From Myxococcota bacterium (lineage in GTDB: Bacteria > Myxococcota_A > UBA9160 > SMWR01), in assembly GCA_036560145.1 (NCBI GenBank), contig DATBRV010000062.1:108703-172702 (forward strand): DNA of 64,000 bases. The letters run 5' to 3'. The notes under the pieces are model-generated. The model did no database searches. It was not told the DNA's origin and was given only the letters and a program-made list of their open reading frames with translations. The position numbers and the translations under genes are program-made. Shown here piece after piece: positions 7,075 to 18,916 of this stretch. How positions within the stretch are numbered: the stretch's first letter is position 1; each line of letters starts with the position of its first letter.

Positions 7075-7506
7075 ATGCGATCCGCGAGATGGCTCGTGCT
7101 GTGTGCGTTGCTGCTGCTCGGGCCGACCGGGTGCATCACCTGGTTCACCGATCCGATGGGCCACAAGGCCGCCTTCGACCAGATCCAGCGCCAGTACACC
7201 CAGTACCTGCGCTGGGGCGAGATCGGCAAGGCCAGCGCCTTCGTCGACCCGGCGCTGAAAGAGGCCTTCCTCGCGCAGGCGCCCGTCTTCGAAACCATGC
7301 GCATCACGGATTTCGAGATCGGCGAGCTCGAGTACACGAGCGACAGCGCGAAGGTCTCGGTCACCTACCAGGGCTACTCCCTCGAGACGTTCGTCGAGCG
7401 CAAGATCCGCGAGGATCAGACCTGGTATCGCGAAGGCAACAACCGCTGGCTGGTGCGCAGCGACGTCGGGGGCTTCGCCAAGGTATTCGGAGAGGCGCGA
7501 CCGTAG
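7075..7506 (+). CDS. hypothetical lipoprotein
   Basis: Shine-Dalgarno GGGAGGGG lies upstream. Lipobox LLLLGPTGC. GC3-rich codons. No domain recognised. Confidence 0.6.
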   Translation: MRSARWLVLCALLLLGPTGCITWFTDPMGHKAAFDQIQRQYTQYLRWGEIGKASAFVDPALKEAFLAQAPVFETMRITDFEIGELEYTSDSAKVSVTYQGYSLETFVERKIREDQTWYREGNNRWLVRSDVGGFAKVFGEARP

Positions 7507-7542: not shown

Positions 7543-8280
7543 GTGGAGACCAGACGCTGCATTCTGATCGTCGATGACACCCCTCTGTTTCGCGATCTCG
7601 AATCCCTCTTCCTCGCGCGCTCCGGGCGCGTGGTCACGGCGCGCGACGCCGACGAAGGCCTCGCCGCCCTGCGCCGCGAGCGCCCGGACGTGGCGGTGAT
7701 CGACCTCCACATGCCGGGGACCGGCGGCGACGCGATGTGCCGCGCGATCAAGGCGGATCCCGAGCTCTCGCACACGCCGGTGATCCTGGTGATGGGCTCC
7801 GACGCGCCGGAGGACCACGCCCTCGCGATCCGGGCGGGCGCGGACGACGTGCTCGCGAAGCCCTTGAGCCGCGTGACGCTGATCCACGCCGTGAACCGCT
7901 TCCTGCGCTCGCCCGTGCTGCGCGGGCTGGCGCGCGTGCGCCTCGAGACGGCGGTCCGCATCCGCCTGCCCGACGAGGACGCCTGGGGCACGGTCCGCAA
8001 CCTCTCGCGCGGGGGTCTCTTCGTCGAGCTCGATCACTCGATCTCGCCCAGCACCGAAGTCGAGCTCGAATTCCGGCTCCCCGACGGGCCGACGCCGCTG
8101 GCCCCCACCGCCCAGGTGGTCTGGCACCGCCCGGGAACGCCGGGCGCGCCGATGGGGCTCGGCCTCCAGTTCCTCGCGCTGGACGGCGCCAGCGCGCAGC
8201 GGATCGAGGCGTTCGTCTACGAGCATCTGCCCGCGGCGCCGCAGGGGCTGCTCGCCGCGGTCGCCCTGGAGGCTGGATGA
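7543..8280 (+). CDS. response regulator with C-terminal PilZ domain
   Basis: Receiver motifs ILIVDD, VIDLHMPG, LAKP. PilZ-type motifs RVRLETAVR and NLSRGGLFV. GTG start after AGGAGAG. Confidence 0.8.
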   Translation: METRRCILIVDDTPLFRDLESLFLARSGRVVTARDADEGLAALRRERPDVAVIDLHMPGTGGDAMCRAIKADPELSHTPVILVMGSDAPEDHALAIRAGADDVLAKPLSRVTLIHAVNRFLRSPVLRGLARVRLETAVRIRLPDEDAWGTVRNLSRGGLFVELDHSISPSTEVELEFRLPDGPTPLAPTAQVVWHRPGTPGAPMGLGLQFLALDGASAQRIEAFVYEHLPAAPQGLLAAVALEAG

Positions 8281-8639
8281 GGCGCTGGAGCCTGCTCGCA
8301 TTGATTCTCGGACTCTGTTTGTCCGCGGCCCCGCTCCGGGCCGACGACGACGCGGAATTCGCGTCCTGGCGGGAGCGCCTCGAGCAGGCGCAAACGGATC
8401 TGATCCGCGCCCGCGAGCAGGCGGCCGCCGCGCACGCCGCCTACGTGGACATGCGTCACGATCGCTCGATGCGCGGGGAAGAGAAGGCGAAGATCATCGC
8501 CGCGCGCGCCAGCACCGAGCACGCCGCCGCGGACGCGCAGGCGCGCTTCGACGCCTTGCGGGAGGAAGCGCGCCGCGCCGGGGTTCCGCCCGGCTTCGTG
8601 CCGCCGGACCCGCCCGCCGAGGCCAGCCCCGACTCCTGA
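8277..8639 (+). CDS. secreted coiled-coil protein, unknown function
   Basis: ATG 8277 overlaps the upstream stop (ATGA). Signal peptide MRRWSLLALILGLCLSAAPLRA, followed by Ala/Glu/Arg-rich helical sequence. Confidence 0.5.
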   Translation: MRRWSLLALILGLCLSAAPLRADDDAEFASWRERLEQAQTDLIRAREQAAAAHAAYVDMRHDRSMRGEEKAKIIAARASTEHAAADAQARFDALREEARRAGVPPGFVPPDPPAEASPDS

Positions 8640-9221
8640 TCAGTACGGGAGATCGAACTCGGACTCGTCGTGGATGTCGGTGGTGACGCTCCACTCGCGC
8701 AGCCGCGGCCGCAGGATCGAGAGGATCTGGTCGCCCTGCCGGACCACCTGCGTCTGGCGGGTCACCGCCTTGCCTTCGGGCCGCGTGAAGAGCGTGTCGA
8801 CGACGATCGGCTCGCTGCTCATGTTCTGCGAGATCTCGACGGAAGGCTCGTAGCTGTTGGCGCTCTGCATCGAGAGCGAAGCCGTCGAGCCCGTGCCGCC
8901 CGCCACCATCGCATCGTCGCGGCGCGCGACGGGCCGCGCATTCACGCTGCGCAGGTACGCGAGGCGCCGGTCGAGCTGCTCGGCGTAGCGCTCGGCCGCC
9001 GCGTCGTCGGAGGGCGTGTAGCGCTGGTAGTCCCCGAGCCGCCCCGCCTCGCGCTGCTTCGCCTGGTCGCGATAGCGCGCGGGGATCGCCTTCGGATCGT
9101 CCGTGAAGGCGTAGCCACCGTCCTCGGTCCGCCAGGAATAGACCGGGTCCGCCGAGGCCGGCGCGGCGAGCGCCGCGAGCAGCAGGATCGCCCCGGACGA
9201 AAGGAGGAATCGCGAACGCAT
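8640..9221 (-). CDS. secreted protein with DUF4124-like N-terminal motif
   Basis: Signal peptide ...LAAPASA followed by DPVYSWRTEDGGYAFTDDP, a DUF4124-like pattern. Convergent with 8277..8639 across the palindrome TGATCA. Confidence 0.6.
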   Translation of the reverse strand: MRSRFLLSSGAILLLAALAAPASADPVYSWRTEDGGYAFTDDPKAIPARYRDQAKQREAGRLGDYQRYTPSDDAAAERYAEQLDRRLAYLRSVNARPVARRDDAMVAGGTGSTASLSMQSANSYEPSVEISQNMSSEPIVVDTLFTRPEGKAVTRQTQVVRQGDQILSILRPRLREWSVTTDIHDESEFDLPY

Positions 9222-9343
9222 CTGAGGTGCTCCATGGGGGTTTCAATACACCCGTATAGTGGCACCTGGCTGACAAAAAATGTCAACTTTTTCAGTATCT
9301 TGGCTGCGCAACCCCGGCGCAAACCGCGCGCAGGCGGGCTGGT

Positions 9344-9372
9344 TTGACAGGCCTGCCCGCAGGGGATATACG
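9344..9372 (+). promoter_or_regulatory. candidate sigma-70 promoter of tRNA-fMet
   Basis: TTGACA (9344-9349), a 17-nt spacer, then TATACG (9367-9372), about 15 nt upstream of tRNA position 1. An AT-rich tract lies upstream at 9275-9305. Confidence 0.4.
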
Positions 9373-9387
9373 TCCAAATCGCTTTGT

Positions 9388-9464
<77 letters not shown>

Positions 9465-9471
9465 CCTAGAG

Positions 9472-9507
9472 CAGACGCCCGGCGCCCTTCGTAGGCCCGG
9501 GCGTCTG
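9472..9507 (+). terminator. hairpin H1 downstream of tRNA-fMet
   Basis: CAGACGCCCGG pairs with CCGGGCGTCTG (11 bp, 14-nt loop), followed by CCGTTCTT. The same hairpin recurs at 10992-11026 and 16072-16106. Confidence 0.5.
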
Positions 9508-9811
9508 CCGTTCTTGGTGACGACTCGAATCGGCCCTCGACCGGGTCGCGCAGTTCGGTGTGGTCTGGGACGCGCGGAGCCGAGGGCTTCTCGCCCGGCA
9601 ACTCCGCGCTAAAGCCGCAGTTCGCACGGCGGAATCACCGACGCCCGTTGGCGTCGCCCGCCGCCATCGTGCTCAATCCGCGCCGCTGTCGTGACGTCTC
9701 CACACGAGCGGTCAACGTGCAAGGATCCCGCACGGCCGGCTGGGGAAAACCTGGCGGACTCCCACCACGAATACGCCCCCGGCCTCGAATCACCATCGGT
9801 CACAACGGGCC

Positions 9812-9877
9812 GCTATGCAAGAAGCTCCAAGGGCACCCGCAGCGCGTCGCGCATCGTGAAAATGCCCCCCCCGCTAC
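9812..9877 (+). repeat. acceptor-mimic repeat unit, copy A
   Basis: GCTATGCAAGAAGCTCCAAGGGCACCCGCAGCGCGTCGCGCATCGTGAAAATGCCCCCCCCGCTAC. It aligns with units B1, C and D and ends in poly-C plus GCTAC, like the tRNA 3' end. It lies 193 nt upstream of the 10070 start. Confidence 0.65.
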
Positions 9878-10069
9878 GGGGGGCGTCGCGGAGAGCGGCC
9901 CGACACGATGGGCGGCGGTGGGGTTTCTCAGCTCTTTGGAAGGGCGAACTAGCTCTTCCCGCTGGTGTATTGATCCGGGGAGGCGCAGTGTGGGGCAAAC
10001 GATGGGAAGGGGCGCGGTGGTGGGCGTGCCGCCGGGATCCTCTTCCGTTATTTGCGAGAGGGGACTCCA

Positions 10070-10810
10070 ATGCGCCGTCTGCTACTGATCGCGTTCGCCG
10101 TCCTCGTGGCCCCGGTTCTCGCCCCCGCTGCGTTTGCGGTCGGAATCAGTTTGGGGGGGGTAAGCGCAATCGATCCCTCCGCGTGTAACACCTCCACATG
10201 CGATTCCGGTACTCCCTACGTACCTACGACCTTGCCCGACTCGGGCACGGTGAGTGCCACCTTCGCCGGAAACAGCTCGACGATAGGCTACAACCTTTCG
10301 AACTCTGCGTTCATGATCACCTTTGACGAGACTAGCGGGGTAAACCTGAATGACACAGGGTACGTCATCGCACAAATCGATTTCACTCCCGACGCGAACG
10401 TGGACTACTCGCTTGATGGGGCCTACGGCGCCCTCGACGCAGTCGCTGGTTATGATGCCCTTAGCGTTAGTCTTGTTGACCTCACTGACAGTGTCGCTCT
10501 ATTTGTAAACAGCCAAGTTAGCATCGGGACCCCCTTTGAGAGCTTGACTCTCGGGCAAGTAGGCGGCGACTGGAGCAACTCCTTATCCGGCTCTCTCAGC
10601 GGCAGCCTGATCGCCGGCCACAACTACCGGTTCAACGCGCAATCTCAGAAGGCGAACCTTGGCGCCTCCGCTGGTGCGTCGGCGAGCGGCTTCGTCAATC
10701 TAACCTTCATCCCCGAGTCCGGCACGGGCCTGCTCGTGATGACAGGCCTACTCGGGCTTGCGTACCGGCAGCGGCGACATGGGCGCGCAGTGAATCGGGC
10801 CCGCCGGTAG
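10070..10810 (+). CDS. PEP-CTERM sorting-domain protein (Ser/Gly/Asn-rich ectodomain)
   Basis: ATG 10070 follows GAGAGGGGA. Signal peptide MRRLLLIAFAVLVAPVLAPAAFA. C-terminus IPESGTGLLVMTGLLGLAYRQRRHGR is a PEP-CTERM-type tail. Third codon positions are visibly more A/T-rich than in neighbouring genes. Confidence 0.8.
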   Translation: MRRLLLIAFAVLVAPVLAPAAFAVGISLGGVSAIDPSACNTSTCDSGTPYVPTTLPDSGTVSATFAGNSSTIGYNLSNSAFMITFDETSGVNLNDTGYVIAQIDFTPDANVDYSLDGAYGALDAVAGYDALSVSLVDLTDSVALFVNSQVSIGTPFESLTLGQVGGDWSNSLSGSLSGSLIAGHNYRFNAQSQKANLGASAGASASGFVNLTFIPESGTGLLVMTGLLGLAYRQRRHGRAVNRARR

Positions 10811-10851
10811 CCTCCGGGAACACGCGGCTAGAGAAACCGCTCGCACTCGGC

Positions 10852-10989
10852 CTACGCGACGAACTCGAGCGGTGCCCGGAGCGCGTCTCGACTGGTGAAA
10901 ATCGCCCGCCTCCCCCGCTACGCGGCGAACTCGATTACCGCCTCGACCGCGCGTCGGGCGTTCCAAAGCGCCCCCCCGCTACCACCTAG
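10852..10989 (+). repeat. two head-to-tail acceptor-mimic units (B1, B2) ending in a copy of the tRNA-fMet 3' end
   Basis: B1 is 10852-10921 (CTACGCGACGAACTCGAGCGGTGCCCGGAGCGCGTC...CCCCCGCTAC). B2 is 10917-10986. The stretch 10973-10989 CCCCCGCTACCACCTAG is identical to tRNA positions 9453-9469. Confidence 0.75.
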
Positions 10990-10991
10990 AG

Positions 10992-11026
10992 CAGACGCCC
11001 GGCGCCTTCCCAGGCCCGGGCGTCTG
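10992..11026 (+). terminator. hairpin H1, second copy
   Basis: The stem arms are identical to 9472-9507. The whole stretch 10973-11031 matches 9453-9512 except in the loop. Confidence 0.5.
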
Positions 11027-11068
11027 CCGTTTCGAGCGCCAGATCGAGCCGTCCCGGTCCGCTTCGCT

Positions 11069-11353
11069 TCAGCCCACGCCGTCGCCGCGCGTGCACGTGC
11101 CGCTGTTGTTGTCGCCCGAATAGCTGTGATTGCTCTGCTGGCAACGGTCCTTGAAGGTGGCGCAATCAGAGGCCGCGTCGGCCTTGCAGGTCTTCACGTC
11201 GCAGCGCACCCCATCCGAATTGGGAACCGTGCAGTTCGTGGTCCTCGCGACCGGCTGCGGGCCATTGTCGGTATCCATGACGTCGCCGGCCGGTGGTTTG
11301 GAGCAACCATGGGCGATCAACAACACGGTGCAGGCGAGCAGGATTCGATTCAT
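11069..11353 (-). CDS. small Cys-rich lipoprotein
   Basis: GGAGAG Shine-Dalgarno 4 nt before ATG 11353. Lipobox LLIAHGC. Eight Cys in the precursor including the lipobox Cys (seven in the mature chain). Confidence 0.6.
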   Translation of the reverse strand: MNRILLACTVLLIAHGCSKPPAGDVMDTDNGPQPVARTTNCTVPNSDGVRCDVKTCKADAASDCATFKDRCQQSNHSYSGDNNSGTCTRGDGVG

Positions 11354-11368
11354 GATTCTCTCCGGTAG

Positions 11369-11818
11369 CTACATCCGTCCCAGGTCGGTGATGGCGTCGA
11401 GCACCATTCCCGTGCCGATCGCGATCAGCAGCACATCGTTCGCCACGCGCACGAAGCGGTAGCCGGGCGGCGGCACGCCAAGCTCGACGACCAGCGGCGG
11501 GGGCAGATCGTAGAAGATCAACTCGCGCGGCAGGGGCCGGCCGATCGTCCAGAGCTTCTTCGCCTGCCCCGGCGGCAGGCAGCCGTTGTTCTTCTTGGCG
11601 AGGCCGGGCGGGCAATGGCCCGCCCCGATCTCCTTCGCGTACCAACCGCGCACCGCGGCCTGTTGGGGCTCGTCGAAGCGCACCTCGACGCGCTGCTTCC
11701 CCTGGTCGTCGTGGCCGTGCTTGCCCTTCTTTCCGTGCTGCTCGTTTCCGGCCCAGGCGGGTCCGCCCGCGAGGGCGGCCACAAGGGCGAGTGCGAGGAT
11801 CGAAGACGGATGGGTCAT
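11369..11818 (-). CDS. RcnB/CigR-like periplasmic protein
   Basis: GGGAGGA Shine-Dalgarno. Signal peptide ...LAGGPAWA. His/Lys-rich stretch, then CPPGLAKKNNGCLPPGQAKK...PPPGYRFVRVANDVLLIAIGTGMVLDAI, the pattern I associate with the RcnB/CigR family. Confidence 0.65.
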   Translation of the reverse strand: MTHPSSILALALVAALAGGPAWAGNEQHGKKGKHGHDDQGKQRVEVRFDEPQQAAVRGWYAKEIGAGHCPPGLAKKNNGCLPPGQAKKLWTIGRPLPRELIFYDLPPPLVVELGVPPPGYRFVRVANDVLLIAIGTGMVLDAITDLGRM

Positions 11819-11980
11819 GGAATCCTCCCGTGACGGAATCGGACGATAACCCGCCCACGGCAGCCGGCCTCCCGACCTCCTGGGCGGCCTCGAGCTCGAA
11901 GCCTTGCGCGGTCAATCGCTCAGGGATTCCCTGCCAGCTCGCGCACCAGCCGGCGAAGGAACTCCAGGGCCGCGCATGGG

Positions 11981-12052
11981 GCTACGCCGCGAACGCGAGC
12001 GGCACGTGGAGGCCCGCCTGCATTCGGACAAATCGCCCCCCCCCGCTACCAC
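11981..12052 (+). repeat. acceptor-mimic repeat unit, copy C, ending in a tRNA 3'-end copy
   Basis: GCTACGCCGCGAACGCGAGCGGCACGTGGAGGCCCGCCTGCATTCGGACAAATCGCCCCCCCCCGCTACCAC. The core 12040-12052 equals the tRNA 3' end through CCAC. It ends 160 nt upstream of ATG 12212. Confidence 0.7.
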
Positions 12053-12054
12053 TT

Positions 12055-12087
12055 GAAGCCCCCGGAATCGAAAGGTTCCGGGGGCTT
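12055..12087 (+). terminator. hairpin H2
   Basis: GAAGCCCCCGGAA pairs with TTCCGGGGGCTTC (13 bp, 7-nt loop). A related hairpin lies at 13281-13313. Confidence 0.45.
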
Positions 12088-12211
12088 CGTCTTCCAGGCC
12101 CCCAACATTCTGGCCGTCTTCTGACATTTTCTGGTCGCAGCGACCACAACCAATGCCACCAATTCGTCCTGCCGCCCACATACCCATCGTACGACCCTGG
12201 GAGGGACGTCG

Positions 12212-13090
12212 ATGGCCCCGCCTGTTCGCTCGCTCCTCACTCGTCGCTTCGGTCTTGCGTCGGGTCCCTTTTCGTCGAGAGGGTTCCGGCGTTGCTTCTG
12301 GCGAGAAGTCTCACTTCGTTTGATGGCAGCCTCGCTCGTGTTTGCGGTTGCGGGACGAGCCATGGCCACGGAGCTGGTTGGTTCCAACTATATTGTTCCC
12401 AACACACTAATAAGAATCGACACCTCGACTGGGGCCGGTACGGCGGTCGGTCCGTTGGTCGAGAGCGTGAGGGGCCTCGCGTTCGACACAAACACGGGCA
12501 CCCTATATGGGACGCTGTTCGCTACGGATTCACTTCTTCTAAGAATCAATTACTCGACGGGAGCGGCGACAGTGGTCGGTTCGTTGGGATCCGTAGACCC
12601 CGAGGGACTCGCGTTCGACCCCAACACGAATACGTTGTACGGGACGAATGTCTTTACGGATCAACTCTTGACGATCGACACCTCGACCGGAGCACCTACG
12701 GCCGTCGGCGCACTGGGTTTCCCCGCCGTGGGCGGACTCGCATTCGACCCCAACACGAATACGTTGTACGGGACGGATTTCATTCTTGACCGACTTGTCA
12801 CGATCGACACTTTGACCGGAGCGGCGACAGAGGTCGGTCCGTTGGGTATCCCGCGCGTGGAAGGTCTCGAGTTCGACCCCAACACGAATACGCTGTACGG
12901 AACGGGTACCATCAGTGACGAACTCTTGACGATCGACACCTCGACTGGGGCGGCCACTGCGGTCGGCCCGTTGGGGTTCGGATTTGTGGTGGGCCTTGCT
13001 GTCGTCCCTGAACCCTCCACCGCGCTCCTCCTTGGCGCCGGTCTCCTGATGTTCGCAAGCGCAAGGCGACCGACCCAGCGACTGCATTGA
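12212..13090 (+). CDS. PEP-CTERM protein with tandem 43-aa beta-propeller-like repeats
   Basis: Strong Shine-Dalgarno GGGAGGGA 5 nt before ATG 12212; ATG 12323 is an alternative start. Repeats GLAFDPNTNTLYGT....D.LLTIDTSTGAATAVGPLG. C-terminus VPEPSTALLLGAGLLMFASARRP. Confidence 0.8.
   Translation: MAPPVRSLLTRRFGLASGPFSSRGFRRCFWREVSLRLMAASLVFAVAGRAMATELVGSNYIVPNTLIRIDTSTGAGTAVGPLVESVRGLAFDTNTGTLYGTLFATDSLLLRINYSTGAATVVGSLGSVDPEGLAFDPNTNTLYGTNVFTDQLLTIDTSTGAPTAVGALGFPAVGGLAFDPNTNTLYGTDFILDRLVTIDTLTGAATEVGPLGIPRVEGLEFDPNTNTLYGTGTISDELLTIDTSTGAATAVGPLGFGFVVGLAVVPEPSTALLLGAGLLMFASARRPTQRLH
12470..12997 (+). repeat. coding tandem repeats, 129-bp period
   Basis: GGACTCGC(G/A)TTCGACCCCAACACGAATACGTTGTACGGGACG recurs at 12605 and 12734, with the variant GGTCTCGAGTTCGACCCCAACACGAATACGCTGTACGGAACG at 12863. 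More diverged copies lie upstream. Confidence 0.8.
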
Positions 13091-13209
13091 GATGCACTCC
13101 GCTTCGGCCCCGGCCGGGCGCGACCCCACAGAGGCGGCACGGGCGCGCAGCATAGGGGGTCCGCCCGTAGCGTCGGGGACTCGCGGCACGGGCAATGGTT
13201 TACGCTCAA

Positions 13210-13282
13210 GCTACGCGACGAGCTCGAGCGGCACGCGGAGGGAGTCGGACATCTGACGTAGCGCCCCCCCGCTACCACCTAG
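13210..13282 (+). repeat. acceptor-mimic repeat unit, copy D, ending in a tRNA 3'-end copy
   Basis: GCTACGCGACGAGCTCGAGCGGCACGCGGAGGGAGTCGGACATCTGACGTAGCGCCCCCCCGCTACCACCTAG. The stretch 13266-13282 is identical to tRNA 9453-9469. Confidence 0.75.
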
Positions 13283-13320
13283 GCCCCCGGAACCGCGATG
13301 GTTCCGGGGGCTTCCTTTTT
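13281..13320 (+). terminator. intrinsic terminator-like hairpin H2' with T-run
   Basis: GCCCCCGGAACC pairs with GGTTCCGGGGGC (12 bp, 5-nt loop), followed by TTCCTTTTT. Confidence 0.6.
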
Positions 13321-13890
13321 CAGGCGTTGGCGATAGTGGTGGGACTCTGGTGGGACTTCTCGCCGAGCCGGGCCAGCAGATCCGCCGGCACCTCGCCGGG
13401 GCCGGCCTCGAGCGGCCTCCGGAAGGCGTCGTCGCCGCACCAGCGCGCGTAGTGCCGGGCCGTCACCGCGACGTCCGCGTGGCCGAGCTGCGCGGAGACG
13501 TAAACGAGCTGCATCCCGGCCGAGAGAAGCTGCGAGGCGTAGGTGTCGCGCAGGTTGTGGGGCGTGTACGACGCCCACACGCCGTGTTCGTCCAGGGTTC
13601 CGATCCCCGTCGCCTTGCACAGACCGCGGAGCGTCCGGTTCCGGTAGTTGGCGTGGTCGACCCGTGCCACGAACCCCGACTCCGGCCTCCCCTCGCGCAT
13701 CCAGGTCTCCCTGAGTGCGCGCCGGAGCCGCCGCGACAAGCGCCGCCACGTCCTCCGGCTTCTCGATCGGCTGCGCCTTGTGGCCGGCCTCGTTCTCCGC
13801 CCTGCCCTTCTTCGTCTGGTTGCGCCGCCGCAGCACCGCGCGCACGCCCCGGTCCGGGGAGCGTATCAAGGCGGCCTCGGGCCCGATCAC
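13320..13890 (-). pseudogene. tyrosine recombinase (phage-type integrase), frameshifted and internally deleted
   Basis: Frame 13320..13739 holds the C-terminal catalytic region ...YTPHNLRDTYASQLLSAGMQLVYVSAQLGHADVAVTARHYARW (H-x-x-R, H, Y). The linker-like piece ...PIEKPEDVAALVAAA sits in another frame (13741-13890). The segment that should carry the first catalytic Arg and the Lys is missing. Confidence 0.7.
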
Positions 13891-13925
13891 GCGTTACGGC
13901 TGGAACGTCGAAGAGGATCGCTGGA

Positions 13926-13998
13926 GCTACGGCGAGGGCCCACCCGGGTCGCGCGAGCTGACACCCCTGATGAAGCTGGTGCTGTAGACGGCCCGCTA
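13926..13998 (+). repeat. acceptor-mimic repeat unit, diverged copy E
   Basis: GCTACGGCGAGGGCCCACCCGGGTCGCGCGAGCTGACACCCCTGATGAAGCTGGTGCTGTAGACGGCCCGCTA. Both ends align with unit D. It ends 160 nt upstream of the 14158 start, the same distance as unit C from 12212. Confidence 0.5.
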
Positions 13999-14157
13999 GG
14001 GGTGACCCGAAACGCACCTCACGCAAATCCGAAATACCCTTCCCCCAGGCAACACTCGAGTGTAGCCTGCAAGGTCGGGAAGGGGATCCGGAAGGGGATC
14101 TCCGTGCAGACTGCTGTTCGCCCTCGCCGCGGACTTGACCTTCGGAAGGGCGAGACT

Positions 14158-14838
14158 TTGCAGACCAAGCGATATCTGTTGATCCTCGTGTCTCTGGGGC
14201 TGTGCGCACCAGCGGCTGCCGCTCCCATCACAATTCCCACAAGTCTCGATCCGGGGGACGAATATCGCCTAGCCTTCGTGACGTCGCCTAAACGCAACGG
14301 GGCGTCTTCGCTAATTGCGTCCTACAACGCCTTCGTCACCGACGTCGCCAACACCCAGGCCGCGCTGGCGTCACTCGGCACCACGTGGAAGGCGATCGGC
14401 TCAACGGCGACGGTCGATGCACGGGATAACACCGGCACGAACCCGGTCGTCGATGGGGTCGGGGTCCCGATCTTCCTCCTGAACGACACATTGCTGGCAG
14501 ACGACAATTCCGACCTGTGGGATGGAGACATCCTTGTGCCATTTGCGATAGATGAAGCAGGCGCGGTGAGTCCGTTGAGCTTCGTCTGGACCGGCACGAC
14601 TTCGTCGGGTGTTGCTCACCCTTTCCCCTTGGGCTCCGAGGAACCGGTGATCGGCACAACCGGGATGACGAATAGCAACTGGGTGGATGGCGCCAAACTC
14701 TTTTCGTTCTTGGAACGGCCCGTTTACGCGGTGTCCGATGTCTTGATCGTCGTCCCCGAGCCCGGCACCGGCCTCCTCGTGATGACGGGCCTACTCGGGC
14801 TTGCATACCGGCAGTGGCGCCAGCGGCGCGAAGCGTAG
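14158..14838 (+). CDS. PEP-CTERM sorting-domain protein
   Basis: No ATG lies near the signal peptide. TTG 14158 after GGAAGGG gives (M)QTKRYLLILVSLGLCAPAAAAP. C-terminus VPEPGTGLLVMTGLLGLAYRQWRQRRE. The track ORF from 13648 is an upstream read-through. Confidence 0.7.
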   Translation: MQTKRYLLILVSLGLCAPAAAAPITIPTSLDPGDEYRLAFVTSPKRNGASSLIASYNAFVTDVANTQAALASLGTTWKAIGSTATVDARDNTGTNPVVDGVGVPIFLLNDTLLADDNSDLWDGDILVPFAIDEAGAVSPLSFVWTGTTSSGVAHPFPLGSEEPVIGTTGMTNSNWVDGAKLFSFLERPVYAVSDVLIVVPEPGTGLLVMTGLLGLAYRQWRQRREA

Positions 14839-14928
14839 AGGATCCGCCCGTCGCCCGCGGGGTGTTGCTCGGGCTAGAATCGCCCCGCGATCGCTCGACC
14901 CGCCGCCGGCTACATTTGGGAGAACTCC

Positions 14929-16059
14929 ATGCCGCGCACGTCCCTCCAGCTCCGGTCGAAGATCACGGCAAACGCCCAGCTCGAGCTCTCGCTGGCCGAG
15001 GTGGAAGTCGCCGATCCCGGACCGGACGAAGTCCTGGTGCGCATCGAAGCCGCGCCCATCAATCCCTCGGACCTTGGCCTGCTGTTCGGCCCCGCGGACA
15101 TGCGCACCGCGAAGACTTCCGGGAGTGACTCACACCCGCTGGTGACGGCCGACGTTCCCGCGGACCAGATGCGCGGCGTCGCGGCGCGCGTCGACCAGTC
15201 GCTGCCCGTCGGCAACGAAGGCGCGGGCATCGTGGTCGCCGCCGGCGAATCTCCCGCCGCGCAGGCGCTGCTCGGCCGGACGGTCGGGGTGATCGGCGGC
15301 GCGATGTACGCGCAGCTGCGCAGCACGAAGCTCGGTCAGTGCCTCGCCTTCCCCGACGGAACCCGACCGGCCGAGTGTGCGTCGTGGTTCGTGAATCCGC
15401 TGACCGCGCTCGGGATGGTGGAGACCATGCGCAAGGAGGGCTTCACGGCGCTCGTCCACACCGCGGCCGCGTCGAACCTGGGACAGATGCTGGTCAAGCT
15501 CTGCCTCGCCGACGGTGTGCCGCTCGTCAACATCGTGCGCAAGCCCGAGCAGGCAAAGCTGCTGCGTTCCCTCGGTGCGGTGCACGTCGTCGATTCGAGC
15601 GCGCCGACCTTCATGGCCGACCTGATCCGGGCCGTCAGCGAGACGGGCGCGACGCTCGCGTTCGACGCCACGGGCGGAGGCAAGCTCGCGAGCCAGATCC
15701 TGACGGCGATGGAGGCGGCGCTCAACGCGAAGGCGACCGAGTACAGCCGCTACGGCTCGACGGCCCCGAAGCAGGTCTACATCTACGGCGGCCTCGATCG
15801 CTCGCCCACCGAGCTGACGCGCAACTTCGGTATGGCCTGGGGCGTCGGCGGCTGGCTCCTCACGCCGTTCCTGCAGAAGAACGGCGACAAGGTGCCGAAG
15901 CTCCGCGATCGCGTCGCGGCCGAGATCAAGACCACCTTCGCGAGCCACTACACCCGGGAAGTGTCGCTCGCCGAGGCTCTCTCGCTCGCCGCCATCGCCG
16001 TCTACGGCAAGCAGTCGACCGGCGAGAAGTACCTGATCAACCCCAGCCGGAAAATCTGA
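14929..16059 (+). CDS. medium-chain dehydrogenase/reductase (quinone oxidoreductase / enoyl reductase-like)
   Basis: GGGAGAA Shine-Dalgarno. Motifs VLVRIEAAPINPSD, GNEGAG, and the nucleotide-binding region ALVHTAAASNLGQMLVKL. Confidence 0.85.
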   Translation: MPRTSLQLRSKITANAQLELSLAEVEVADPGPDEVLVRIEAAPINPSDLGLLFGPADMRTAKTSGSDSHPLVTADVPADQMRGVAARVDQSLPVGNEGAGIVVAAGESPAAQALLGRTVGVIGGAMYAQLRSTKLGQCLAFPDGTRPAECASWFVNPLTALGMVETMRKEGFTALVHTAAASNLGQMLVKLCLADGVPLVNIVRKPEQAKLLRSLGAVHVVDSSAPTFMADLIRAVSETGATLAFDATGGGKLASQILTAMEAALNAKATEYSRYGSTAPKQVYIYGGLDRSPTELTRNFGMAWGVGGWLLTPFLQKNGDKVPKLRDRVAAEIKTTFASHYTREVSLAEALSLAAIAVYGKQSTGEKYLINPSRKI

Positions 16060-16071
16060 GACTGCGTAGAG

Positions 16072-16106
16072 CAGGCGCCCGGTGCCTTCCCAGGCCCGGG
16101 CGTCTG
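16072..16106. terminator. hairpin H1, third copy, between convergent genes
   Basis: TAGAGCAGGCGCCCGGTGCCTTCCCAGGCCCGGGCGTCTG (16067-16106) differs from 10987-11026 at 2 positions (3 if the flanking GTCGTT/GCCGTT is included). It lacks the CCCCGCTACCACC core. Confidence 0.5.
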
Positions 16107-16160
16107 TCGTTCCAGACCACGCATCTTCAGCATTCGCGTTCGTCGCGCGCCGAGCACGCC

Positions 16161-16982
16161 TCAATCGGTGCAGGGGCGACCGAGCAGCGCCAACAGGCGC
16201 TCGATCGCGCCGACGATGAGCCGCCGCTGCCGCCGGCGCTCCGGCTCCACGAGGTCCGCGAAGACCTCGTCCATTCCTCGGTCTTGGTACGAGTCCAGGC
16301 TCACGTCCCCACTCACGACCTTCGACGGATCCGCGAGAGTCTCACGACAACGCGCCTGGATCCGCCTGAAGGCGGCCTCGCCGCCCGATTCCGCGGGCCA
16401 GATGCCTTGAACCGACTGCTCCGTCGCGAACTCCTCCCACTCGACCGGTTGGTTGGCACCGGGGTGTATCAATGCCGTCAGTCGGACGGCGCCGGCTTCG
16501 ACGTCCTCCGGGAGCCGCGCGAGTGCGCCGCCTTCGTCGATCACCGTGGCGTCGAAGCCCGTCTCGATGCGAGCCGAACCGTTCTCGAGCGATCCGGCTC
16601 GGGTCGCGTGCCCGCTCGCGAAGGCAAGGTGACCGAAGCGATCGTGATGCGTCTGCGTCGGCAGCGCAGAGTGATGGAAGCCCTGCTCCTCTCGCCTGAC
16701 GGTCGCCCACGAGCCGTCGGAGCGGAGCACCCGGTCGAGGCCAGCGGCGGGATCGAGGAAGAACAGGAACGGCTGGCCTCGCCCAATGGCACGCATCCTC
16801 TTGTACCAGCTGTGTGCTTCCGCGACGTAGAACGGGAAGGCTTCTCGCTGCGCTCGAGTCGGCACCGGTAGATCCCGCACCAGTTGGCGGTAGGTTGCGA
16901 GGTCGAGTCTGGACGCGGAAGCGTGAGCGCTGTCGAGATCTCGTTCGAGTCGAAGGATCAAGTCCGCGGAGAACTCTCCCAT
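16161..16982 (-). CDS. hypothetical protein, no recognisable domain
   Basis: ATG 16982 is preceded by a perfect AAGGAGG. The track start at 17069 is less likely. GC3-rich, 273 aa. Confidence 0.65.
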   Translation of the reverse strand: MGEFSADLILRLERDLDSAHASASRLDLATYRQLVRDLPVPTRAQREAFPFYVAEAHSWYKRMRAIGRGQPFLFFLDPAAGLDRVLRSDGSWATVRREEQGFHHSALPTQTHHDRFGHLAFASGHATRAGSLENGSARIETGFDATVIDEGGALARLPEDVEAGAVRLTALIHPGANQPVEWEEFATEQSVQGIWPAESGGEAAFRRIQARCRETLADPSKVVSGDVSLDSYQDRGMDEVFADLVEPERRRQRRLIVGAIERLLALLGRPCTD

Positions 16983-17264
16983 CGGGTGCCTCCTTCGCAA
17001 TTCCAGGGGAGCGTAGCGGTCCCGGCCGCCGCGCCCGATCCGTGAGACCATCATACAACTGGGTGTCAATCAGGCCGGCGGAGCGCAGGAAGGGACACGC
17101 CGCCCCAATCGTTCGCGCGGCGCACGTTGGACTTGCGACCGAGTCCACTCGCGATCGAACGCACCGCTGTCGCCGGTGAGGCGAAGCCCCTCGAACTCGA
17201 GCTCGCTGCCACCCACGCGCGCAGCCAAGCCACATTCCCTACAGGCAACTCTGGAGGTGAGTCG

Positions 17265-18200
17265 ATGAGCCTGCTTGTCCGTTCGCTCCTCGCTCGTGCG
17301 TTGATGCTGGCCGGATTGCTGACGGCATGGGCTGCGCCGACAGCGAGCGCCAGCGGGATCTATTGGAGCGCGAACGGAGCGATCGGCCGCGCGAACCTCG
17401 ACGGCACGGGCGCGAACGCGAGCTTCATTCCGGGCGTCAATGCGGGTGAAATCGCCGTCGACGCCACGTCCGTGTACTGGACCAGGAACACTGGCACGAT
17501 CGGCCGCGCGAACCTGGATGGCACGGCGGTGAACCCGAATTTCATCTCGGCGATTCCCGGAGTGAGTGGTGTCGCTGCCGACGGATCACATGTCTACTGG
17601 ATCAGGCCAGGCGGTGAAAGTCCAACGATCGGCCGCGCGAACCTCGATGGCACGGGGATCGTCGAGACCGTCGTCTCCGGGGTCGGCCCAGACGCGTCCG
17701 ACCTTGCCGTGGACGGATCGCACCTCTACTGGGTCAATGCCGGTGTGAGCGGTGTTGCCAGCGCGAATCTCGACGGCACCGGAGTAGACGAGATCGTGAT
17801 CGTTCCGGGTTCTTGCTGCTATTTCAATCAGATTACCGACATCGCCGTCGGTGACTCGGGCCTCTACTATGCCTACGTGGGCGTGCCGGTGCACTACATG
17901 TTTCCGCCCACAGGCGCGATCGAGGGCGGGCGGGGGAGCATCTCCGGGACCGATCTCTCTCCGCGCGGTGTCGCGCTCGACGAGACGTTCGTCTATTGGA
18001 CGAATTTATACCCAGCCTCGGGGATCTGGCGCGCGAACCTCGACTTCTCTGGGGCAACGCTCCTGATCTCGGGCGGATATGGAGATATTGCGGTGTCGCC
18101 CGAGCCCGTGCCCGAGCCCTCCGCGATCCTGCTGCTGATGGCAGGACTGGTGGGGCTTGCGTACCGGCAGAGGCGGCACGCGATGCCTCAATCTGCCTGA
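17265..18200 (+). CDS. PEP-CTERM protein with YWTD-type (LDL-receptor class B-like) beta-propeller repeats
   Basis: GGAGGTGAG Shine-Dalgarno. Signal peptide ...WAAPTASA. Repeated (I/V/L)YW(S/T/I/V)....G.IGRANLDGTG blades. C-terminus SPEPVPEPSAILLLMAGLVGLAYRQRRH. Confidence 0.8.
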   Translation: MSLLVRSLLARALMLAGLLTAWAAPTASASGIYWSANGAIGRANLDGTGANASFIPGVNAGEIAVDATSVYWTRNTGTIGRANLDGTAVNPNFISAIPGVSGVAADGSHVYWIRPGGESPTIGRANLDGTGIVETVVSGVGPDASDLAVDGSHLYWVNAGVSGVASANLDGTGVDEIVIVPGSCCYFNQITDIAVGDSGLYYAYVGVPVHYMFPPTGAIEGGRGSISGTDLSPRGVALDETFVYWTNLYPASGIWRANLDFSGATLLISGGYGDIAVSPEPVPEPSAILLLMAGLVGLAYRQRRHAMPQSA

Positions 18201-18916
18201 TAGACCTTCGATTCCTGGACTCGTGCGCGCAGACGCTGGCGTTCGTCGCGGAACTTCGCGCCCTCGACGCTGATCCACGCCTTCTGGAACTGGGTCCACG
18301 TCAGACCGTCCGCCAGGCCCTTCGGTTCCGGCAGGAAGAGCGTGCCTTCGAAGCCGCTGCCGCATCGCTCGATGGCCTGCTTCGAATCCGCGCCGGCGAG
18401 CCATTCCGCGAAGGCGATGCCGGCGGCGTTCGCGTTCAGATCGGTGAAGCTGAAGCCGGTGCCCGCGCCCTTCTCCTTCCCCTTCGCGTCGGCCACTTCC
18501 TTCTGGATGCCGAGCGACTCGGCCAGCTGCTCTCCGACGAGGAGCGCTAGACCACCGCTCAAGGCGAAATGAACCAGCCAGTCCTCGCGTCCGCGGAGCG
18601 TCGGCTTGCCCATCGCCGCGAGGCGGGACGTGCGGTCGCTCGCCGTCTCCACGTTCTTGAAGATGTCGCCGGAGAACGGATTGCGTGCGAGGGTGTCGGT
18701 GGGATCGAGCGCGTAGGCGAGTGCGTAGACGACTGCCTCGGGCGATTCGCCGGAAGCGCAGGCGCGGCGGACGTAGAAATCGGCGAGTGCATCGCCGGAG
18801 AGGCGCTCCTTCTCGGGTTTCGCGGCGTTCTCCCTGGCGGCCGAACCGATCGCCGTCACGACGATCTGCACGGGCGCGTCGAGCGGCGCGAGGAGGGCCG
18901 CCATGAGGAGTAGCAT
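18188..18916 (-). CDS. hypothetical protein
   Basis: GC3-rich 242-aa ORF 21 nt downstream of 18938..19492 on the same strand. No clear Shine-Dalgarno or canonical signal peptide. Confidence 0.5.
   Translation of the reverse strand: MLLLMAALLAPLDAPVQIVVTAIGSAARENAAKPEKERLSGDALADFYVRRACASGESPEAVVYALAYALDPTDTLARNPFSGDIFKNVETASDRTSRLAAMGKPTLRGREDWLVHFALSGGLALLVGEQLAESLGIQKEVADAKGKEKGAGTGFSFTDLNANAAGIAFAEWLAGADSKQAIERCGSGFEGTLFLPEPKGLADGLTWTQFQKAWISVEGAKFRDERQRLRARVQESKVYQAD

Follow-up and report, generated by a model that had tools for sequence, protein, structure and literature searches.

Repeat units downstream of a tRNA-fMet gene in an uncultured Myxococcota bacterium: probable att-type junctions of a tandem array of small DNA segments

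Introduction

Integration into tRNA genes by tyrosine integrases of the lambda/P4 type was reportedly described by Williams in 2002. Tandem accretion at a tRNA or transfer-messenger RNA (tmRNA) gene, which yields islets resembling cis-mobilizable elements (CIMEs), is the known kind of system to which, by analogy, the locus presented here appears to belong. It lies in a 64-kb stretch of DNA from an uncultured Myxococcota bacterium (contig DATBRV010000062.1, positions 108,703 to 172,702; G+C content ~70%), hereafter referred to as the window, and pieces identical to the window are present in several Joint Genome Institute (JGI) metagenomes. Downstream of its tRNA-fMet gene, the window carries a family of direct repeats of 65-75 nucleotides (nt), hereafter units, some of which bracket genes coding for PEP-CTERM proteins.

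The islands at the ssrA gene of Dehalococcoides are arranged in tandem with the 3' end of the target gene repeated directly at their borders; a conserved motif found upstream of this direct repeat shows no alignment with the target gene (McMurdie et al. 2011, PMC3146451). Integrase-less CIMEs arise by accretion (PMC5704250). The original prediction, made from the letters of the window alone, had held that no element with the architecture of the unit array was described; with the tandem arrays of tRNA- or tmRNA-gene ends (PMC3146451) and the accretion-born CIMEs (PMC5704250) in the literature, this statement could not be upheld. What does appear unusual about the locus are its gene-sized, recombinase-free segments of ~1 kb and the conserved arm of ~70 nt.

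Results

An insertion of 3.8 kb at the 3' end of the tRNA-fMet gene

ARAGORN located a single tRNA gene in the 64 kb, with the anticodon CAT, at positions 9388-9464 on the plus strand; it matched the Rfam tRNA model with 65.5 bits. In the encoded tRNA-Met, the anticodon stem contains three G:C pairs and the 1:72 pair is mismatched. Both are established identity features of initiator tRNAs, and the gene would accordingly code for the initiator tRNA-fMet. Contigs from other metagenomes or sister samples (designated by L numbers) were used for comparison, and four relatives were found through homologs of an integrase remnant in the window (L145/L146, L147, L148 and L160). They have in common with the window a backbone of genes for an ROK protein, a PilZ response regulator and a DUF4124 protein followed by tRNA-fMet; a TGT gene further upstream is also shared by L145, L147 and L148. 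The nucleotide identity of the backbone to the window was ~66-78% (measured for L145-L148), and that of the tRNA-fMet gene was 95-96% in L145 and L147.

In all four relatives, the tRNA gene is directly followed by a hairpin, referred to as H2 type, and then by an integrase gene on the opposite strand, with distances from the tRNA end to the integrase stop codon of 42 (L145), 42 (L147), 92 (L148) and 44 nt (L160). The integrase of L160 is full length (346 amino acids, P0131 type), and those at the same position in L145, L147, L148 and the window are decayed. In the window, the hairpin and the integrase gene are found colinear after unit D (13210-13280, plus strand), the outermost and attR-like junction, which is itself colinear with the tRNA flanks of L147 and L145; the integrase stop codon lies 42 nt from the CCA of D, which equals the tRNA-to-integrase distance of L145 and L147. 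The core of D is followed by the ancestral tRNA flank with an H2'-type hairpin (13281-13313, plus strand), which was recognized by alignment and by the terminator scan (15 pairs plus a T run) as the native tRNA-fMet terminator of the lineage. A 13-nt stretch of L147 (CCCCCGCTACCAC, positions 492-504) aligned to both the tRNA end and the core of D. Because of this double alignment and of the hairpin and integrase after D, positions 9465-13277 (3,813 nt) are considered inserted, with both breakpoints in the core. By this comparison, 3.8 kb of extra DNA can be placed exactly between the tRNA core and the ancestral hairpin-plus-integrase flank, and the 3' end of tRNA-fMet can be identified as the integration site of a tyrosine-integrase family. 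That the repeats are recombination boundaries had been one of two roles initially proposed for them; in its favour, the units form the breakpoints of the insertion relative to the relatives, they have an invariant core in common with the tRNA-fMet 3' end, and the integrase remnant abuts D.

The remnant (13320-13850, minus strand) was delimited by tblastn and BLAST comparisons with the 209-amino-acid homolog P0002 and with L145. Its open reading frame (ORF; 13320-13739) contains only the C-terminal HxxR...Y part (positions 101-167 of the 172 of Pfam profile PF00589), and ~200 nt coding for the Arg-I/Lys region of P0002 are deleted. Judged by its sequence, the ORF is a dead integrase remnant with its 3' end pointing at D, and it is now separated from the tRNA gene by the array.

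Dozens of homologs of the remnant from metagenomes (P0004-P0120) are short, many of exactly 140 amino acids with full query coverage and some on long contigs; they represent either C-terminal remnants widely inherited at the locus or a short form that is maintained. A 304-amino-acid integrase of the same family (52% identity to P0002) is encoded on contig L161 (ENA ERZ27247320), overlaps a tRNA-Arg gene and is part of an element resembling a phage or a satellite, which also encodes a D5-type primase-helicase and a head-decoration protein; this hints at the kind of intact element to which the integrase family belongs. Searches of viral contigs with P0002 yielded relatives at 31% identity only, and a scan of viral contigs with a two-anchor unit pattern gave 0 matches. 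Upstream of the tRNA-fMet gene, a promoter-like TTGACA ... GATATA pair (9344-9375) is kept in L145; it was not reported by a consensus promoter scan of positions 9000-18500.

Five units with an invariant core

A nucleotide profile built from the copies listed in the original prediction was run with nhmmer and retrieved five significant units, all on the plus strand (E 3e-16 to 7e-13): A (9812-9878, E 6.7e-13), B1 (10852-10922, E 2.6e-16), B2 (10917-10987, E 6.6e-14), C (11981-12055, E 8.1e-14) and D (E 3.1e-16). In the annotation of the window, the units were given the bounds 9812-9877 (A), 10851-10921 (B1), 10917-10986 (B2), 11981-12052 (C) and 13210-13282 (D). Since the profile was made from the units themselves, independent evidence weighs more than these E-values. 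In a BLAST comparison, a unit from another metagenome (L141) matched C (E 1.6e-12), B1 (1.7e-7) and D (2e-6). The sequence CCCCCGCTAC was present at six exact sites versus 0.1 expected, all on the plus strand between 9453 and 13275, the first being the 3' end of the tRNA gene, where the attachment core reads CCCCCGCTACCA (9453-9464, plus strand); the predicted mimicry of the tRNA-fMet 3' end by the repeat ends was thereby borne out. The same applied to the conserved 5' part, the motif of which (GCTACGCGACGARCTCGAGCGG) gave three matches at up to three mismatches versus 0 expected.

The five units span 3.5 kb and have one orientation, which is that of the tRNA gene upstream of them; no unit was detected with the profile in the other ~60 kb of the window. 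A family of at least six copies had been announced, and copies A, B1, B2, C and D were recovered where they had been placed. Copy E (13926-13998) and two presumed weaker relatives, F (14839-14913) and G (17190-17245), gave no plus-strand profile match even at E <= 100, and the homology of F is confined to the 3' untranslated region (UTR) that precedes the units after two PEP-CTERM genes (gene1 and gene2, see below). The next match after the five units was the tRNA itself (9426-9467, E 0.012), covering the 3' strand of the anticodon stem through CCA, and the rest was noise.

A unit is composed of a conserved arm of ~55 nt, with the motif GCTACGCG in its 5' part, and a core of 10-13 bp, CCCCCGCTAC(CAC). 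The core was aligned for two tRNAs, five units of the window and eight repeats of relatives from altogether six genomes; CCCCCGCTAC was the sole invariant block (15 of 15 aligned sites). The unit ends (GCTAC ... GCTAC) are direct and not inverted repeats, and B1 and B2 overlap in GCTAC as described initially, with a core-to-core distance of only 61 nt. A repeat of L145 (ACCCGGCTGGTCTCGTCCGTTGCGAAGCGCCCCCCCGCTACCA) takes an intermediate place between the units of the window and the 3' half of the tRNA, which supports descent of the 3' two-thirds of the unit from the tRNA. A homology of the first ~23 nt to the D-arm and anticodon stem of the tRNA was hinted at by MAFFT, found no support with nhmmer and was treated as not demonstrated. 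The units are not tRNAs, in line with the earlier view: no cloverleaf was detected in them by ARAGORN or Rfam (E <= 10), which recovered only the true tRNA.

The sequences following the cores differ. The GCTAC of A is followed by a G-rich flank. A hairpin termed H1 (9467-9511, plus strand), identified as repeat family D7, by the terminator scan and by alignment with the relatives, directly follows the tRNA gene; because the relatives have the H2 type at this place, it would have arrived with the inserted DNA (P' side). A second H1 hairpin (10987-11031, plus strand; repeat and terminator scans) follows B2, a unit-plus-H1 arrangement also found in other metagenomes (L141 and L123/L133). After C, a hairpin of the H2 type (12053-12095, plus strand) was found by the repeat scan and by alignment to L147, and the core of C together with this hairpin is 88.9% identical to the native 3' flank of the L147 tRNA-fMet gene. 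When the arm and core of D are joined to the H1 hairpin now located after the tRNA gene, the unit-core-H1 module that is intact at B2, L141 and L123 is rebuilt, as expected of the attP-like site of a circular element. A third H1 hairpin (16067-16111), 93% identical to that of B2, lies after a zinc-dehydrogenase-like gene (14929-16059) with no unit ahead of it; H1 may be a wider terminator or REP-like hairpin in the genome (REP, repetitive extragenic palindrome).

Segments and cargo genes

Counted from core to core, the five segments comprise 415, 1044, 61, 1067 and 1226 nt in this order. PEP-CTERM genes are the cargo of two of them, two unrelated genes are found in another, a convincing gene is missing from a further one, and the last is the 61-nt segment. 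The G+C content of the cargo segments is 0.60-0.63 versus 0.69-0.79 for the flanking backbone. Ten ORFs between 8.6 and 18.2 kb of the window were screened with protein family models. Gene1 (10070-10810, plus strand, G+C ~0.62), located between A and B1, encodes a protein with a weak PEP-CTERM-type C-terminus (NCBIfam, 20.9 bits versus a cutoff of 65; no Pfam match); P0122 is named 'PEP-CTERM sorting domain-containing protein' by NCBI. Gene2 (12212-13090, plus strand, G+C ~0.60), located between C and D, codes for a DUF4394/DUF6923-like PEP-CTERM protein with five in-frame tandem repeats of 129 nt within 12416-13008. Between B2 and C, two genes on the minus strand encode a Cys-rich secreted protein of 94 amino acids (11069-11353) and an RcnB/CigR-like protein (11369-11818), neither of which is a PEP-CTERM protein.

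The three unit-bracketed PEP-CTERM genes of the original prediction were thus reduced to two, gene1 (A and B1) and gene2 (C and D); gene3 (14158-14838, plus strand) also encodes a PEP-CTERM protein and lies outside the demonstrated insertion. The bracketing is not specific to such genes either, given the two minus-strand genes between B2 and C and the other cargo of the relatives. Distances of 193, 160 and 160 nt between units and the downstream gene starts had been pointed out; the arithmetic is right, the third value depends on the unsupported copy E, and the upstream regions cannot be aligned.

The 3' UTR of gene2 (13100-13209, plus strand; repeat families D6 and D9) forms an extended conserved arm upstream of D, and its part from 13100 to 13180 contains a non-coding fossil of a PEP-CTERM C-terminus, homologous to the ends of gene1 and gene3. 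The similarity among tails and UTRs amounts to 81% over 112 nt or about 72% over 60-73 nt; the higher value applies to the 3' flank of gene3 (to 14913) compared with the tail and UTR of gene1, and this flank has neither unit nor core. From the shared tails and UTRs it follows that some recombination or duplication among cassettes has occurred. A further PEP-CTERM gene, gene4 (17265-18200), lies outside the set of real units. It contains four LDL-receptor class B-like repeats of ~126-129 nt (17380-17805) and resembles gene2 in the ribosome-binding site and N-terminus (12200-12244 versus 17253-17297, 78%).

Units and tRNA-end repeats in other genomes

The relatives contain direct tRNA-end repeats of their own beyond the tRNA or integrase gene, 1-4 kb apart and with unrelated cargo (AstE/AspA-like gene, methyltransferase, MBL-fold protein, MFS transporter, L,D-transpeptidase and small ORFs). 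In L145, a unit-like repeat ending in CGCCCCCCCGCTACCA lies 2.3 kb past the tRNA gene, beyond the integrase remnant and the AstE/AspA-like gene. L148 has two tRNA-end repeats past integrase fragments, each followed by a hairpin. Three were found in L150, two of which start at TCATAACCCGGAGG in the anticodon loop and run to GCTACCA. The L150 sequences at 7202-7290 and 8913-9001 (minus strand) correspond to the tRNA-fMet 3' half from the anticodon loop, with an insertion of ~30 nt in the T-loop region; they suggest a second class of elements with crossing-over in the anticodon loop.

For units A, B1 and C, the similarity to the unit of L141, which is from another organism, exceeds that to every neighbouring unit; D is equally near, and B2 is the exception. 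The first 34 nt of C are 97% identical to the unit of L123. For unit plus H1, the identity between genomes amounts to 82-97%, compared with only ~75-80% nucleotide identity for the protein-coding genes of the same genomes, and the spacer between the DUF4124 and tRNA genes, as unconstrained intergenic DNA, could not be aligned in the same comparisons. This similarity across genomes fits independent acquisition and not local duplication; the units are probably not local duplicates.

On contig L157 (JGI 3300005836), a homolog of gene1 (88% amino acid identity; 87.6% nucleotide identity including ~110 nt upstream) is found in a different context, adjoining a tRNA-Ala gene and followed by a degenerate unit and an H2-like hairpin. 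Genes for an L,D-transpeptidase and for a small secreted protein as well as an IS1595-like fragment adjoin the unit-plus-H1 modules of L141, L123 and L133. Orthology of L141 and L123 does not extend beyond ~240 nt around the module, outside which the contexts diverge, and one contig starts inside a unit. An array junction would look like this, and a more dispersed distribution would also be compatible.

Contig L153 of the sister sample 3300035167 is 100% identical to positions 7652-9462 of the window and diverges exactly after ...CCCCCGCTAC. Its new flank (1-168; 168 nt) begins with TAGACCATCAATGG after the tRNA, has its own terminator and the start of a new gene, and does not encode CCA. The cassette arrangement of the window is also present in this sample (L163), and L153 represents either a coexisting strain with a further element at the tRNA gene or an assembly chimera with a second tRNA-fMet gene. 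The breakpoints at GCTAC that had been anticipated between strains are thus seen in L153 provided that it is not such a chimera. Contigs of several sister samples break inside or beside units. When the sister-sample contigs were checked for the absence of single cassettes, all except L153 matched the arrangement of the window. A scan of 596 Gb of contigs with the 5' motif CTACGCNNCGARCNCGAGCGG, a pattern that proved too degenerate, gave at least 120 single matches in unrelated high-GC taxa; none of the matches listed was a full unit after re-scoring with the unit profile.

Discussion

Taken together, the units are very likely attachment (att)-type junctions, and five segments would have accreted in tandem between the tRNA gene and its original 3' flank by site-specific recombination in the core. 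In this process, a tyrosine integrase of the family identified at the locus would catalyse strand exchange within the core. The incoming element would be a circle carrying a unit-core-hairpin site; on recombining with either the tRNA core or a junction already present, it would leave the tRNA intact and followed by the terminator hairpin of the element, and would set unit plus core at the far end of the element. Repeated integration would generate an array in which the newest element is nearest to the tRNA gene, and the hairpin brought by each element may keep the tRNA properly terminated after integration. As the segments encode no recombinase, they would be decayed or cis-mobilizable islets that depend on an integrase acting in trans. 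The PEP-CTERM genes would be cargo, and the units would sit within the 3' regions of these genes since this is where the arm side of the element comes to an end.

Several observations weigh against this interpretation. No homology to the tRNA could be demonstrated for the first ~23 nt of the unit (GCTACGCGACGAACTCGAGCGG), the local nhmmer alignment beginning at profile position 24, and the att model offers no explanation for the GCTAC with which the unit also begins. With ~1 kb, the segments are unusually small and devoid of mobility-gene remnants, and B1/B2 implies an 'element' of 61 nt, for which slippage or recombination between units is the easier explanation. Gene1, gene2 and gene3 share homologous tails and 3' UTRs, the homology (upstream of B1 and D) reaching up to the unit. 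The unit-plus-H1 modules of L123, L133 and L141 are located on tRNA-less contigs, albeit of only 1.6-5.5 kb, and the L153 junction may result from chimeric assembly with another tRNA-fMet gene. The window codes for no intact integrase, and recent activity is unproven because the adjacent remnant lacks the Arg-I/Lys region.

An integron-like capture platform at the tRNA-fMet 3' end is an unlikely variant of the recombination model. Cassettes of ~1-2 kb would be shuffled singly by a tyrosine recombinase acting in trans, and their small size would be native and not a result of decay; each would carry a promoter of its own and one or two genes coding for surface or secreted proteins, the ~70-nt unit taking the role of attC. 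If true, such a platform would diversify the exosortase-sorted surface proteome. A genuine integron was rejected: the integron-integrase models TIGR02249 and NF011946 scored 26.7 and 25.3 bits versus cutoffs of 265 and 435, and XerC/D-type models scored the same. The units were not regarded as attC-like in the original prediction, and rightly so: an inverted-repeat fold (-0.48 kcal/mol, five weak pairs) and the GTTRRRY core are both missing.

Quite improbable is an origin by local tandem duplication and unequal crossing-over without any site-specific recombinase, by which a module of PEP-CTERM tail, UTR, unit and terminator was copied and the gene bodies were later replaced or diverged. The homologous 3' ends and UTRs of the three genes up to the unit, the fossil PEP-CTERM tail in the 3' UTR of gene2 and the head-to-tail position of B1 and B2 agree with it. 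It leaves unexplained, however, that four of the five units are as near or nearer to another organism's unit than to one another, that the cargo is unrelated (gene1; two minus-strand genes; gene2) and that the flanks after the core differ (G-rich, H1, H2). Moreover, four relatives lack the whole block, the breakpoints lying exactly in the core of the tRNA, and relatives have independent direct repeats with other cargo.

We consider very improbable that the unit plus H1 is a dispersed repeat similar to REPs or miniature inverted-repeat transposable elements, serving mainly as a terminator and gathered near the tRNA, its likeness to the tRNA being due to convergence or old capture. The tRNA-less contigs L123, L133 and L141 and the lone H1 hairpin at 16067-16111 would be accounted for in this way, whereas the remaining ~60 kb of the window without a unit and the position of every copy in tRNA orientation downstream of the tRNA would not. 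The units also have no palindrome, consensus fold, terminal inverted repeats or target duplication beyond the shared core, and the contigs of the relatives are short, begin or end in units and sit at junctions of sequence divergence. For the same reasons, non-palindromic units in one orientation that are not dispersed in the window, REPs and bacterial interspersed mosaic elements (BIMEs) were rejected, in agreement with the earlier judgement that the placement is not REP-like. An IS200/IS605-type insertion 3' of a GCTAC target was discarded as well, as the units have no subterminal hairpins and integrase genes were present at the site in all relatives examined.

A cis-acting RNA or promoter of the PEP-CTERM genes (a sigma-54 leader, as considered in the original prediction, a tRNA-like processing or stability element of the 3' UTR, or a C-rich small RNA) is extremely improbable: the units do lie on the sense strand in the 3' regions of gene1 and gene2, contain a C-rich tract and, where last in line (B2 and D), are directly followed by a terminator hairpin, but the RNAalifold consensus of seven units (-0.48 kcal/mol, five weak pairs) shows no meaningful covariation, no Rfam family including tRNA was matched by units at E <= 10, the sigma-54 consensus TGGCAC-N5-TTGCW at up to two mismatches matched no unit and occurred in the window at chance level (15 matches versus 16.9 expected), the upstream sequences of the four PEP-CTERM genes cannot be aligned, C, D and the B1/B2 pair (after B2) directly precede terminator-like hairpins, the genes of one bracketed segment are on the opposite strand, and the units of relatives adjoin unrelated genes.

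With att-type junctions as the preferred interpretation, what appeared to be a new cassette-bracketing repeat would turn out to be ordinary, well-understood att-site scars at a tRNA integration hot spot, and the locus provides a clean comparative example from an uncultured Myxococcota. The initiator-tRNA gene is flagged as an anchor of a variable region in this lineage, and the ~70-nt signature of conserved arm plus CCCCCGCTAC could be used to delimit islets in related metagenome-assembled genomes. Some of the PEP-CTERM surface-protein genes found here would be horizontally mobile cargo.

Comparison with known systems

REPs and BIMEs resemble the units as short intergenic repeats with GTAG at the unit boundary (on the complementary strand) and associated terminator-like hairpins, whereas the units are non-palindromic, of single orientation and, within the 64-kb window, not dispersed; the ten screened ORFs (8.6-18.2 kb) included none for a RAYT-like protein. 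Like integron cassettes, the segments are gene-sized, have one orientation, end in a recombination site of ~70 nt each and lie beside a tyrosine recombinase gene, which is decayed here. Integrons, however, have an IntI-type integrase, attC inverted repeats with a GTTRRRY core and attI as an anchor in place of a tRNA 3' end, and their integrase diverges from the array, whereas the one described here converges on it.

With elements of the lambda/P4 type, the locus shares, in the relatives, an integrase gene that adjoins the tRNA-proximal att site and whose 3' end faces the tRNA (in the window, only its remnant is left, on the far side of the array), the restoration of the tRNA 3' part by the element and the direct repeat of the tRNA 3' segment at the distal end. 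The usual case there is a single element of 5-100 kb with its own integrase; here, an array of gene-sized segments lies between the tRNA gene and a decayed integrase.

The definition of CIMEs comes from Firmicutes, where their target is the 3' end of fda, a protein-coding gene. As in accretion of the ICESt1/ICESt3 type (PMC5704250; Pavlovic 2004 and Bellanger 2011 cited there), the segments have att sites on both sides and no integrase, and a new element would enter an att site that belongs to a decayed resident one to give a tandem array at one target-gene end. The mobility of CIMEs was shown experimentally, whereas that of the segments, which are much smaller, is putative.

The ssrA islands of Dehalococcoides differ from the array in their target (tmRNA versus tRNA-fMet), their recombinase (the serine recombinase DsiB versus a tyrosine integrase), their size (multi-gene islands, often with six-gene integration modules, versus segments of 0.06-1.2 kb) and their repeat (20 bp versus an invariant core of 10-13 bp within ~70 nt of similarity). 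In both systems, a single gene for a small stable RNA is followed downstream by several islands in tandem, and an extra conserved motif that cannot be aligned to the target gene is located just upstream of the repeat. Many of the Dehalococcoides islands likewise have no integration module and are read as cis-mobilizable, and the cargo is rich in one paralogous family, rdhA in Dehalococcoides and PEP-CTERM genes in two of the five segments at the Myxococcota tRNA-fMet gene.

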